Shown here one piece after another: positions 3,800 through 56,362 of a stretch of 57,036 nt of DNA. The first letter of the stretch is position 1. The number at the start of each line of letters is the position of its first letter. Position numbers and translations under genes: made by a program. The notes beneath the pieces were generated by a model. That model searched no databases. It was given only the letters and a program-made list of their open reading frames with translations, and was not told the DNA's origin. This stretch comes from Eledone cirrhosa (Eukaryota): positions 1-57,036 of the forward strand of contig CAXHJY010000666.1 in the NCBI GenBank assembly GCA_964016885.1, written 5' to 3'.

Positions 3800-4025
3800 T
3801 ATATATTAAAATAACAGATTAAAGTTTAAGCAAAGAATCGCTGCTTTCACCCTTAACGGGATCTTCTGAAGATCGCGTTAAGCGTGAAAGCAGCGATTCT
3901 TTGCTTAAACTTTAATCTGTTATTTTAATAAATATTTGTTCTAGGGTTCTTATATATTTAATATATATTTATCCTTATCGAGCCCTCTTTGGATTTTAGT
4001 CTTTACATTTATTATTATTACTATA
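3800..4025. mobile_element. Penelope-like foldback, family B (short inverted arm plus tailed arm)
   Basis: 3800-3870 is the reverse complement of 3868-3932; the arm continues into the tail ttatcgagccctc...ttattac(TA)n. Confidence 0.75.
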
Positions 4026-4127
4026 TATATATATATAGTAATAATAATTCTGTGAACACACACACAGAAACAAGATGGCATAGGACAGAACAAAGGAGAG
4101 GCACAAAAACGAAGAAAAGAATCCCCA

Positions 4128-4170
4128 GTCACTGAAGAGGTCACAGAATGTGTGACGAAAGAACTTTGAC
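4128..4170 (+). ncRNA. Minimal type I hammerhead, family N
   Basis: gtca CUGAAGA g-gtcaca gaatg tgtgac GAAA gaac UU tgac. Confidence 0.6.
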
Positions 4171-6195
4171 AATATATAAACAACCATCTGGTTGTGGAAC
4201 CAACCAACCAACCGGAAATTTATAAATTCCTAAATTTATAAATTTATTATAATAAATTGAAGTGAAAGCAACTGGTGCGTGTGTTTCTCATTGGCAACAT
4301 GACCCTCCTAAAGTATAACAATATATATATATATATATATGCACACCCACCCACACACGCACACACACACAGTGTTTTGTGTATCCCAAGTCTCCCCTCT
4401 CCACGCCACAAATGTTGTCCAAGGGAAGGGCAAAGGCTGATACAGCTTGGCACCAGTGACGACACAGCTCATTTCTACATCTGAGAAAACTGGAGCAACA
4501 AGAAAAAAGTGCCCTGTGTGTGTATGTATGTGGGGTGTACTACTGTTTCTATAACTCCATTGGCGAATAACAACAACAGTGATAATATACTTCTCTCAGC
4601 TTTCACTAGCTTATTAAACCAACTGCCTGCTGCCTGTTCTCGAAACGTTAGTAGCAGCAATATCCAAAATAGCAACAAGCTTCACAACAATAACATTAAA
4701 TCTTTCGTTACCATACTTGTTAGGAAAAAAGCTGGCTAGGATTTTCAAATAATTTCTCCGTAAAATCCGAAGGACAGCAGCCCCACCTGAGGGGTCACTG
4801 TTGCATCGGGTCTCGCTGGAGAATTTCCCTGGTAACACCTTTACCATTCTGTCTGCAGCCCACGACTAAATCACCACTGAGACTGGGATGTAAAGTCTGT
4901 CCCTCTTTCTCTTTCCTTTTTTTTGTGTGTGTGTGTGGGTGGGCTTCATTTAAATATTAGTTTTTTGTCAAACATTACAATGTGATCTTACAACGCTACT
5001 TTTGTTTTCTTCGTGTTTAACTAAATATCAAATTGTTATAACAATATGACCCTCCTCAAATATAATATCTGTTACAACACACGATTTCATATCAAAAACC
5101 TTGCAAAACAAATAAATATTAAATTCTTTATTATTTCTTTATTAAATTCTTTATGTAATTTTATCCTAGAAATAAATTATCAATTATTTAATCGATAAAA
5201 GATCTATTATTTAATATGATTATATATATGTACTTCTATTTAATAATATATAAATATTTGTTATATGATTTTCAAATTATCAAACATATTTGAAGGGCCC
5301 CTGTCAGCATTTAACTATGGACAGGTGCTCGAAGAATACAATCTCTGTTTAAAGGTGTTAAATTTCTAAAAATAAGGAAACATTTGGTCTTGAATTGATG
5401 TTTCTTTTTCCTTCTTTTTTCCTCACTTTGATTATATGTTTCTGTGTATTATATTCAAGGGGTTTGTTTCAGGGGGGTGCCAGGGGACAAGCCCCCCCCC
5501 CCTTTTTTTTCAAACATATTTTATTTTTTGTTTATTTGATATAATAAATTCTATTTAAGCTTATTTTTTTTATATCTAAACTTATAAAATTTAATTAGCG
5601 TAAAATTTTACTTATGTGATAGAGTCCGGGAAAGGGACCATAAGTAATTTATGCTCCTTTAAGAATCAACAAATGTTGGTTTGTTATATTCATAAAGTTC
5701 CTAGCAATAATTAATTAATTATATGTATGTATTTCTATTTAATCTAATATATATTATTTGTTATATGATAATATAATTACACCTATCTGAATATGTATTT
5801 TAAAAAGGAAAGATTTAGTAATATAATTAACGTTCTCGTAGTTAAGTTGCTGTTTGGAACATATTGGGCGATTCTTGAGAAAAATACTTTATTTTATTTG
5901 AATAAGATTTCCCGCGTATTTTAGTAAAAAATACGGCGAAATCTTGTAATTCAATTTTCAAATTCCGCTCGGTGTTTTCTAAACACATGTGCTTACCTTA
6001 TTTCACATTGCTTCTTCTGCTCAATGTGTTGAGTGGCAGATGATATCAATAATGCAAAGAACAATGGAAATATTGTTTCTTTGGTCCGATTTAGCGATCG
6101 GTTCTTTTCCTTTCAACAAAGTTACTATTATAAGTATTTAGGTATATATATATATATATATATATATATATATATATATATATATATATATATAT

Positions 6196-6563
6196 AACGG
6201 AGGAAATGTGGTAAGGAACCAGGTGGACCATAACGACTTCCTTCCCCTCCCTAGTATCTTCTTTGACCTCATGCCCAGCTGTAGTCGGCACTATCAACGC
6301 ATGAATGGGTCTCCTCCCCCCCTCTCCCTCTTTCTTCTACTGGCAGGTTCAGCTACCCCTTCCCTCCACAAATTGCCATCATAGAATTATTATGTCTCAA
6401 CAACAAACTTTTGACCAATCCTTGTGACAATCACTTTTACCATATATGGAATTACCCCCTGAGAAGCTCGGCTATTCAAATACCAGGATAAAAATGTTCA
6501 TTTAGTCCTGAATTAGCCGTCGAAACGGCTTGAGCTCAGCCGTCGGGGTCCTACTCGTTCCTA
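6196..6563 (+). mobile_element. Penelope-like element family A (inverted tail piece plus hammerhead arm) between (TA)n
   Basis: 6196-6234 is the inverted tail; 6235-6563 matches about 48464-48771; ends gttcctat|(TA)n. Confidence 0.75.
6454..6549 (+). ncRNA. Type I hammerhead, family A (variant core)
   Basis: acccc CUGAGAA g-ct-cggcta...tagccgtc GAAA cggc ttgagctca gccg UC ggggt. Confidence 0.7.
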
Positions 6564-6630
6564 TATATATATATATATATATATATATATATATATATAT
6601 ATATATATATATATATATATATATATATAT

Positions 6631-53560: not shown

Positions 53561-54322
53561 CTAACGTAACGATATATTATCACTACATTATTGATAACCT
53601 GAAATTTTATATATATATATATATATATATATACAGAGAGAGAGATAAAGATATTGATAGAGAGATAAACATTAGTAAACACATTATATAACACATTATA
53701 AGAACGATTATATATATATTATATGTATGCCTTGGAAGTCCTATCGCTAGAATATCCAGCATTTATATCATAAGTGAAAACCCATAATGTTTTTCAAATA
53801 TCACTAAGATGTTTTTCTTTGTTTCCTGTTGAAAAAGGAATTTCATAAAAGGAAGCTATGTAACTGCTGCAGTGCAAGATTCTTTCAGTAATATTTCAGA
53901 CTATATGTGTATATATATGTGTGTACATTTATATATATATTATATTATATTATATTATATTATATTATATTATATTATATTATATTATATTATATATATA
54001 TATGTATATGTAATTTATTGATTTTTATCGCTTCTGTTAGAATTTGATGTTTGTTGGTGATGAGTAACTTTTGCGTTATTTGTACAAAGTTCGTTGTTTT
54101 TTCTCTCTTTCTACTTTTATTCATTTTGAAGAAGTTTCTAGGCTACGCATTGTAGAATTGGCTTGAAGAAATTCGACGTCCCTTTAACTCCATGTTTCAA
54201 ACACAGCTGCAAAATGTGTCACGTATGTATGTATGTGTGGGTCTGTATATATATTTATATATATATATATACATAAATATAAGTATGTATATGTATACAG
54301 ACGTACAGTAGTTTGTATATAT

Positions 54323-55088
54323 ACACACACACACACACACACACACACACACACACACACACACACACACACACACACACACACACACACACACACACAC
54401 ACACACACACACACACACACACACACACACACACACACACACACACACACACACACACACACACACACACACACACACACACACACACACACACACACAC
54501 ACACACACACACACACACACACACACACACACACACACACACACACACACACACACACACACACACACACACACACACACACACACACACACACACACAC
54601 ACACACACACACACACACACACACACACACACACACACACACACACACACACACACACACACACACACACACACACACACACACACACACACACACACAC
54701 ACACACACACACACACACACACACACACACACACACACACACACACACACACACACACACACACACACACACACACACACACACACACACACACACACAC
54801 ACACACACACACACACACACACACACACACACACACACACACACACACACACACACACACACACACACACACACACACACACACACACACACACACACAC
54901 ACACACACACACACACACACACACACACACACACACACACACACACACACACACACACACACACACACACACACACACACACACACACACACACACACAC
55001 ACACACACACACACACACACACACACACACACACACACACACACACACACACACACACACACACACACACACACACACACACACACAC
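54323..55088. repeat. Uninterrupted (AC)n, about 380 units
   Basis: Direct reading. Confidence 0.95.
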
Positions 55089-55282
55089 AGCAGAGCTCAA
55101 ATGTCGAAACGGCTTGAGCTCTGCCGTCGGGGTTCTGACTCTTTTCCTATTTATATATATATTTATATATATATATATATATAGCTTCCAAAAATAATGG
55201 TTGCATCTAATAGGGTACGTCAGAATTATTTATAAAACTGTTTATATATTGTATTTTATCTGATGAAGGCATACATATATTG

Positions 55283-55347
55283 TATTTTATCTGATGAAGG
55301 CATACCATATTTTAATTTGGTATCCCTGAAATATGTATAATGAAATA
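55283..55347 (+). ncRNA. Type I hammerhead, family J
   Basis: tattttat CUGAUGA aggcatacca...tggtatccct GAAA tatgta UA atgaaata; preceded by a 31-bp tandem duplication of its 5' half. Confidence 0.75.
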
Positions 55348-56362
55348 AATATGGTTTTATAAATATAGTTTCCATTTATTTAATATCGTATATATATATA
55401 TATATATTTATATATATATATATATATATATATATATATATATATATATATAAACGAAGGAAATGTGGTAAAGAACCAGGTGGACCATAACGCACCAAAG
55501 TACTCAATACTTAGGGTAGTAGAGTGGGTAATAGGAACGAGTAGGACCCCGACGGCTGAGCTCAAGCCGTTTCGACGGCTAATTCTGGACGCGTCGAAAC
55601 GGCTTGAGCTCAGCCGTCGGGGTCCTACTCGTTCCTATATATATATATATATATATATATAGGAGTGTGTGCGTTTCTCTGTGTGTTTGTGTGTGTGTGA
55701 ATGTATTTATGTGTGTGCAGCATAAGTATATTATTTATATGTGTATGTGGTATATTTTAACGTCTTCATATTCAGCAACCTCTTTTGCAAAAAATAATTC
55801 AGAATTTTCTATCGAAATACAGAATTATTTCAAGAAAGGGCTTTTTTTTTTATTTCTATTATCGAGCAAGGAACTACGACACACCAATTATAATACCCAC
55901 TGTGGAATATTTGTGAATAAATCAAGGATATAACCCTCTGAGACATAAATAGCCCGTGGGATTCGAAATCACAACTGCATATTTCATAGTTATAATTAAG
56001 GCGCCATAGTTTTTTGTTCTAATGGCAAAAATACTTAATTTAAAATTTCAATCTCTCACGCTCTAAACAGACTTTCTAACAGCATTATTATCATTATTAT
56101 TATTATTATTATAGTAATTTCTAACAAATTATTGATTATATAGCTGGAGGTAATCTTGGGGTAAAAAATAATGTTGCGTATGAAAATAGATGTTGTTGGT
56201 TACGAACAATCATTATCGTCTGCTAAAATTTGCACGATTCTTTTTACATATTTACGTAGAAGATATACGTGTGTGTGTATGTTTCTGTACGTGTGTATTT
56301 GTGCGTATGTGTGTATATGATAGTGTACGCATGTGTATTGAAATATTCAATTTTCACCCACG

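Follow-up and report, generated by a model that had tools for sequence, protein, structure and literature searches.

The window analysed here, the entire 57,036-nt contig CAXHJY010000666.1 (C693 in our analysis) of the 2,996-Mb Eledone cirrhosa assembly GCA_964016885.1, is rich in (TA)n and carries arms of six families, A, B, C, G, J and L, of Penelope-like elements (PLEs). Element copies that stop at either of two family-fixed points, a short arm end (S) and a long arm end (L) separated by a stretch that we call the tail, are joined head to head in these insertions; among 156 such pairs with both ends classed, 154 combined an S with an L end, two were S+S and none was L+L. The same hairpin motif follows both end points, and sequence comparison leads us to consider it probable that the two arms arise through internal priming by two reverse transcriptases, which share one RNA and start from nicks on opposite strands of a TA repeat.

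Six Penelope-like families with two fixed arm ends

Arms were surveyed in a main sample of 201 merged stretches (1.23 Mb including the window, mostly from contig C1) picked by core patterns present in both arm types. They were mapped on single natural references, an end being classed as S or L if it fell within 6 nt of that point, and loci L260-L289, picked for read-through, were excluded from end and pair counts. A blind sample comprised 59 10-kb stretches on many contigs, 19 of which overlap the main sample. Copies were located genome-wide by exact core-pattern searches, which matched 33,262 sites for A, 26,470 for J, 21,865 for B, 6,005 for C, 3,739 for family L and 263 for G.

All six families are terminal repeats or 5' leaders of PLEs, each leading to a PLE open reading frame (ORF), which bears out a preliminary description of the window that likened the insertions to the inverted pseudo-long terminal repeat (pLTR) plus tail of PLEs. 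The same description took the families to be unrelated, but the ORFs of the other families are ~35-56% identical to that of A. Family A is the terminal repeat and leader of the element at locus L050, where an inverted arm with a tail and a partial tandem accompany a 719-aa ORF (from ATG), and where the 3' repeat runs up to S in (TA)n. The ORF is complete there; those of B, J and family L were read from fragments, and those of G and C are partial only. A single ORF carries the reverse transcriptase (RT) together with a GIY-YIG endonuclease at the C terminus, with an N-terminal motif (RWK in G, RWR in A, B, C, J and family L), SDKT in all six families, YRDD, a CxCX5C linker in all except the G fragments, where it was not seen, and CxxC and CxH in the GIY-YIG region (CNLC and CKH in A, with a single cysteine in the GIY-YIG core and no CCHH, by eye). 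A Pfam scan of the A ORF returned no hits; its homologues carry PF26215/PF01541, and 2,054 relatives of ~700 aa were found. From these protein motifs, whose likeness was judged by eye against reference proteins given only as supplement text, the six families appear to belong to the Hydra clade. As characterized in the accessible text of PMC8557442, that clade shares RW[KR], DKT (modified from DKG), CxCX5C, CxxC, CxH, the C-terminal GIY-YIG domain, insertion into (TA)n, hammerheads (here predicted) in the pLTR, an inverted 5'-truncated copy and a tail at one end; an initial assignment to Neptune was dropped, as the motifs listed there indicate Hydra. The A and B repeat units (3,118 and 3,259 bp) slightly exceed the size given as 'generally' <3 kb in the same text, and the tails, at 67-132 nt, are longer than its 30-40 bp. 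PLE-like ORFs unlike the Hydra type lie at L003:2021-5790, L051:956-3097 and L007:887-1951.

The inverted 5'-truncated copy and one-sided tail of endonuclease-bearing (EN+) PLE insertions are present. The long, ORF-bearing body can be formed by either of the arms, which corrects the earlier description of a short inverted arm beside a long tailed one. Putative type I hammerhead folds were seen by eye in A, C, J and family L, A having the U3-A8 core variant described in PMC4209133; B has U4A, and the stems in G are uncertain. An Rfam scan of the window at gathering thresholds gave no hammerhead hits.

The 18 arm stops listed in the preliminary description all lie within 0-3 nt of a real junction between element and (TA)n, with 22188 moved to 22185 and 3800 adjoining a TA run of only 8 nt. 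Short ends had been placed 20-65 nt past the predicted ribozyme cut, with the other arm running about 70-130 nt further; the measured values are 20-63 nt (A +20, B +29, C +38, J +52, G ~+56 with an uncertain cut, family L +63, those for C and J adjusted by eye from landmarks) and 67-132 nt (A 80, B 86, C 67, G 68, J 93, family L 132). The short end is indeed family-fixed, but the long end is equally so. Ends fell within ±6 nt of S or L in 203/232 cases for A, 85/97 for B, 60/62 for C, 54/60 for G, 70/80 for J and 47/55 for family L, against 14-22% expected under uniformity, and 61 of 77 ends in the blind sample did likewise.

At least 10 nt of TA follow 90/99 S ends and 99/104 L ends of A; the L ends of G score lowest (13/28, with (CA)n in 11). 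Short Illumina restriction-site-associated DNA (RAD) reads of animals from another study contain loose (AT)n ends of A both at S (2,907 and 2,596 reads) and at L (7,398 and 8,048 reads). Because a restriction site in A, where reads stop at L050:4356, masks most A junctions, B was used for junctions in raw reads, and its TA ends and strand-switch joints are common to three animals. In A, 170 of the 173 ends that make up the two peaks show 3 nt of TA microhomology, and across families the match is 2-4 nt. Microhomology alone was rejected as the cause of the ends because many unused TAT/ATA sites, up to ~20 in B and J, lie between the cut and L.

The preliminary description tied the short end to the ribozyme cut. 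That cut was rejected as a ruler for S because of its variable distance, whereas a motif downstream keeps a spacing of 2-5 nt: RCTC lies just beyond all 12 ends, and its pairing partner is a GAGY further downstream, with RCTYT-like letters behind it; the loops span 8 to 89 nt. The paired GAGY strand was found in 11 of 12 references; the twelfth, at the S site of family L, is absent from the reference and present in 10 of 20 copies of that family. Pairing is compensatory, ACTC with GAGT at four sites and GCTC with GAGC at eight, and the background rate of the full motif is 0.06%. The element continues past both ends into the ORF. Second hairpins of J and G were predicted before being seen and then found in read-through copies (67 and 32 read-through hits); for C, one of 28 hits was a read-through copy and the rest were chance matches.

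The motif extends to metagenome relatives. Among the 47 of 79 metagenome loci with at least 150 nt of leader, 39 carry at least one paired motif and 25 at least two, compared with 3/47 for the ORF and 15/47 for the reverse strand as controls, and among the 17 second copies that are not truncated by the end of a contig, 13 stop 0-6 nt short of a hairpin (two stop calls were made by eye, and some loci are near-duplicates). The motif pair in these relatives is nearly always G-C, so that evidence from R-Y covariation comes from the E. cirrhosa genome only. The published Hydra-2_Amil sequence has the motif near its 3' end, by eye. On the 5' side of two metagenome elements (L299 about 990-1010 and L362 about 2945-2960), the element starts at a TA tract just where the S or L point lies, which suggests that precisely one unit of a tandem or circular RNA was copied.

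Pairing of short and long ends

Beyond the 156 fully classed pairs of the main sample, another 27 had one unclassed or read-through end. The rule recurred in 19 of 20 ORF-spanning insertions, partly the same loci, and in the blind sample, where 14 pairs were S+L, one was L+L and ten had one unclassed end. Genome-wide, for one A subfamily, 3,485 foldbacks combined S with a partner reading into the tail, against 20 S+S foldbacks where independent choice would predict ~1,740. The ends face opposite sides of TA tracts, with one S and one L for each insertion, in agreement with the earlier proposal of two ends used on opposite strands of a TA target.

Junctions between arms fall into 65 types among 73 A foldbacks, many with short templated insertions, and each foldback therefore arose separately. 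Annealing of palindromic AATT as the cause of junctions was rejected, since it fits only one of 63 listed junctions. The 5' ends of both arms lie within 10 nt of each other in 86/154 pairs; in 42/154 the S arm extends 5' beyond the L arm by 10 nt or more, the tail being confined to the L arm, and in 13/154 the L arm lies wholly within the tail, so that the arms do not overlap at all. In such non-nested pairs one arm cannot be a copy of the other. Subfamily marks are common to both arms in 48 of 52 scorable pairs (of 75), where 14 would be expected, which fits a single RNA as putative template.

Target-site duplications are mostly unreadable in TA; an informative direct flank match was present in 5/152 insertions, versus 0-2 in shuffles, and two of these lay close to the ends. 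At L031, about 1340-1780 (contig C1:4943161 onward), an A foldback is flanked by 48-nt direct repeats, likely a long target-site duplication. A search for empty sites found colinear flanks elsewhere for 14/151 insertions, mostly corresponding to other nested insertions.

Origin of the paired ends

How PLEs make inverted repeats and a one-sided tail is called an open question in the accessible text of PMC8557442. The preliminary description had offered RNA 3' ends or priming sites for the two stops. The data favour internal priming sites over two free RNA 3' ends, because the element reads through both ends, the same hairpin stands beyond each and free RNA species would not pair one-to-one. A PLE protein, predicted to be a dimer in another PLE, would bind both hairpins of one leader RNA, and its GIY-YIG domains would nick both strands of (TA)n; each 3'-OH would anneal to the TAT/TA just 5' of a hairpin and be extended, and end-joining repair would link the two cDNA 3' ends into an asymmetric foldback whose tail would correspond to the stretch of RNA that separates the start points. 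Less certainly, the great number of mini-copies may reflect the short distance, ~60-250 nt, from the start points to the 5' end of the transcript made by the element itself: both enzymes would run off at the transcription start, and full-length copies would need read-through RNA with a second leader behind the ORF. In A, 7 of 10 tail-only L arms stop at the 3' edge of hairpin 1 (S+25 to S+39), which would fit collision with the second enzyme; the numbers are small and B does not show the pattern.

In loci selected without the A pattern, 31 of 59 A arms end at positions -44 to -33, seven further upstream and 21 earlier. Position -40 falls on the A of a TTAGTC that is similar to the initiator motif of transcription; B junctions pile up at TTAGTT and those of family L at TCATTA. 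Run-off at the transcription start would account for this, a moderate guess only, because no single point stands out clearly among the 5' ends of C, G and J and an initiator-like motif stands upstream of the ribozyme in only 7 of 22 metagenome relatives, with a shuffled rate of 13%.

Besides these two observations on the 5' ends, several points weigh against internal priming on one RNA. The sampled loci are biased to contig C1 and to exact-match, hence younger, copies; many arms in the sample have no partner, and the genome-wide count covers S with read-through and S+S pairs, not L+L. Overlapping arms require that one enzyme displaces the cDNA of the other, a displacement that the model assumes. 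The 2-4 nt match seen here contrasts with the accessible text of PMC11167929, where the cut DNA had no homology to the start site. Shared subfamily marks would be equally expected if two RNAs came from a single active subfamily or if the arms were homogenised afterwards, and 4/52 pairs differ in their marks. Two possible inter-family chimeras, at 23345-23694 of the window and at L010 about 9020-9178, where a B S-stub is joined to an A L arm, would, if true, show that two RNAs can serve one insertion.

It is rather unlikely that S, L or both are DNA cuts made when the GIY-YIG endonuclease resolves a longer cDNA intermediate beside the hairpin motif. Endonuclease resolution is given as the origin of the tail in the accessible text of PMC8557442, a requirement of the Penelope endonuclease for tail sequence is cited in that of PMC11167929, the ends fall at TA steps, a likely cut motif, and staggered resolution could yield one-of-each pairing; against this, the L hairpin lies outside the inserted DNA with the same geometry at both ends, tail-only L arms beside non-overlapping S arms are hard to cut from one intermediate, and genomic tail ends matched measured RT start sites in another PLE (PMC11167929, in the text accessible). 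We find it improbable that S and L are instead the 3' ends of two processed RNAs, cut before each hairpin and each used on one strand in ordinary end-primed target-primed reverse transcription. Fixed ends would be expected from such RNAs, and the rare S+S and L+L pairs and the possible chimeras show that two RNAs can be used, but independent use predicts about 1:2:1 for SS:SL:LL, far from the 20 S+S per 3,485 seen, and inspection of the ends by eye revealed neither AATAAA nor poly(A), a point on which no formal test was made.

Self-priming, in which one nucleic acid folds back and copies itself into an inverted arm, was proposed in PMC3846280 as far as its text is accessible, and would explain head-to-head palindromes, shared subfamily marks and the frequent near-coincidence of the 5' ends. 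Self-copying requires nested arms, however, and the pairs in which each arm has unique sequence or the two do not overlap speak against it, which leaves it very unlikely for these families. That the foldbacks are DNA elements amplified as units, like miniature inverted-repeat transposable elements (MITEs), or assembly artefacts deserves almost no credence: they are short, palindromic, TA-flanked and present in tens of thousands of copies, and the window is a small 57-kb contig, but their junctions vary copy by copy, their ends are asymmetric, their arms are pieces of retroelement leaders, and the same structure occurs on chromosome-scale contigs; raw Illumina reads from three animals of another study also contain the ends and the strand-switch joints. 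Symmetric ends and an amplified unit, as in MITEs and terminal-inverted-repeat DNA transposons, are not what we see.

Known systems share parts of this picture. In L1 twin priming, both target strands prime on one RNA and produce an inverted segment, the first start being the poly(A) end and the second random; in the present families both starts appear internal, fixed and marked, and the arms usually overlap. As reported in the accessible text of PMC11167929, Poseidon_Ac has two internal starts with a tail between them, cuts and extends both DNA strands, uses an AT-rich target and has a predicted dimer and a dispensable ribozyme. It differs in belonging to the Penelope/Poseidon clade and in placing its starts within the ORF in an AC-rich stem loop; that text reports no strand bias between the starts, no one-of-each rule and no duplicated signal. 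EN+ Penelope insertions of Adineta vaga, in the accessible text of PMC3846280, have inverted pLTRs, a 31-bp tail on one of them, an initiator-like pLTR motif and palindromic junctions, and were explained by self-priming on an antisense template, which the non-nested arms here do not fit. Non-LTR retrozymes are short non-coding hammerhead repeats tied to PLE pLTRs and arranged in tandem monomer arrays (bioRxiv 10.64898/2026.07.22.740005; PMC4209133, both as accessible), and their U3-A8 core also occurs in A. Retrozymes consist of tandem monomers with a full hammerhead and no ORF, whereas the arms described here are head-to-head truncated leaders of ORF-bearing elements, and most A mini-copies hold only the 3' half of the ribozyme. 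The accessible text of PMC8557442 gives no count of end pairing, and its main text lacks the words 'hairpin' and 'stem-loop'. The inverted repeat, the one-sided tail, the TA preference and two start sites have thus been published already; the pairing rule and the twin hairpin were not found in searches of an open-access library, as distinct from older subscription papers and supplement figures.

A more speculative extension, which we regard as unlikely, is that the twin hairpins act as template-boundary signals like those of telomerase RNA, seating an RT dimer on one RNA and setting, on each strand, a template of 2-4 nt against the TA primer, and that repeated copying of this template lets the elements lengthen the (TA)n, (CA)n and (CT)n tracts of the host as well as build the paired foldbacks. 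Weak hints of repeat addition are that long ends run into (CA)n in 11/28 cases in G, against 0/26 short ends, and into (CT)n in 6/32 in C, against 2/28, and that one insertion has TA flanks far longer than those in empty copies of the repeat that it entered; the choice of target, or slippage at a later time, also explains these hints. In the window, the (CT)n and (CA)n preceding TA at 30954-31146 and 34634-34668 match the last letters of an element variant.

Features of the window and implications

The preliminary description placed all of its listed ends in foldbacks. This holds for nine of the 18 (3800, 10447, 22188, 30955, 34913, 41379, 42568, 47891 and 55637); of the others, three belong to S+L pairs that overlap barely or not at all (6563, 31650 and 32470), five have no partner (14875, 18584, 39287, 48771 and 55389) and 23347 is a 20-nt A stub on a B copy.

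Table 1. Arms, pairs and related features of the six families in the window
Positions	Strand	Family	Feature
6194..6564		A	S+L insertion, non-overlapping: tail-only L arm 6194-6235 (-), S arm 6234-6564 (+); full predicted hammerhead 6455-6542
10445..10640		A	Foldback: S arm 10445-10499 (-), L arm 10500-10640 (+)
10566..10594	+	A	Hairpin 1 (ACTC...GAGTACTTT) in tail, 5 nt past S point
22185..22391		A	Foldback: S arm (-), L arm (+)
55453..55638		A	Foldback: L arm (-), S arm (+)
14733..14876	+	A	S arm, no partner
48282..48772	+	A	Long S arm, no partner; U3-A8 hammerhead core at 48665
6631..6771	-	A	L arm, no partner
8350..8494	-	A	L arm, no partner
34498..34637	+	A	L arm, no partner
23345..23694		A and B	Possible inter-family chimera of a 20-nt A S-stub, which begins precisely at the predicted ribozyme cut, and a B copy that ends near L
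3797..4020		B	Foldback: S arm (-), L arm (+)
47890..48129		B	Foldback: S arm (-), L arm (+); hairpin 1 about 48047-48097
32464..32631		B	S+L pair, tail-only L arm
24140..24303		B	Short foldback: L arm (-), S arm (+); absent from the preliminary description
30954..31131		C	Foldback: S arm (-), L arm (+) whose end is (CT)n followed by (TA)n
18515..18587	+	C	S arm, no partner
34663..34913		G	Foldback: L arm (-), S arm (+)
40728..41385		J	Foldback: L arm (-), S arm (+)
31643..31898		J	S+L pair, tail-only L arm
55276..55396	+	J	S arm, no partner; element extends further 5'
42567..43908		L	S+L insertion, interrupted by SINE-like repeat copies
39087..39289	+	L	S arm, no partner

Two further foldback families with the same asymmetry, absent from the preliminary description, lie at 38870-39018 and 7110-7260, and their tails carry a GAGTACTCT / GAGTGCTT motif. 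Other families form asymmetric foldbacks at 52603-52787 and 49489-49760; the first of these has its long end in (TTA)n and no clear RCTC...GAGY hairpin, and perhaps represents another PLE clade. A 190-nt repeat resembling short interspersed nuclear elements (SINEs) is abundant (3181-3369, 13049-13196, 23933-24127, 28763-29032, 43172-43590 and elsewhere); two tandem copies of it stand inside the family L insertion with a short duplicated flank, and other copies of family L carry the repeat at the same point. Seven 96-nt tandem units at 24911-25727 derive from the 3' part of a long interspersed nuclear element (LINE), which we take to be RTE-like, and 31169-31595 is a truncated copy of the same LINE. 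At 32930-33460, a LINE-like ORF that has zinc-finger motifs is represented by its 3' end, which starts at a TA tract; L075 holds a longer copy.

The strict one-of-each rule and a short conserved RNA signal make the open mechanism of PLE insertion testable, and they contradict self-priming for the Hydra clade. PLEs are the closest retroelement relatives of telomerase, and an internal, movable start signal, if true, would be of interest for tools of RNA-templated gene insertion. The rule and the signal also imply that the tens of thousands of MITE-like palindromes in such genomes are products of retrotransposition.

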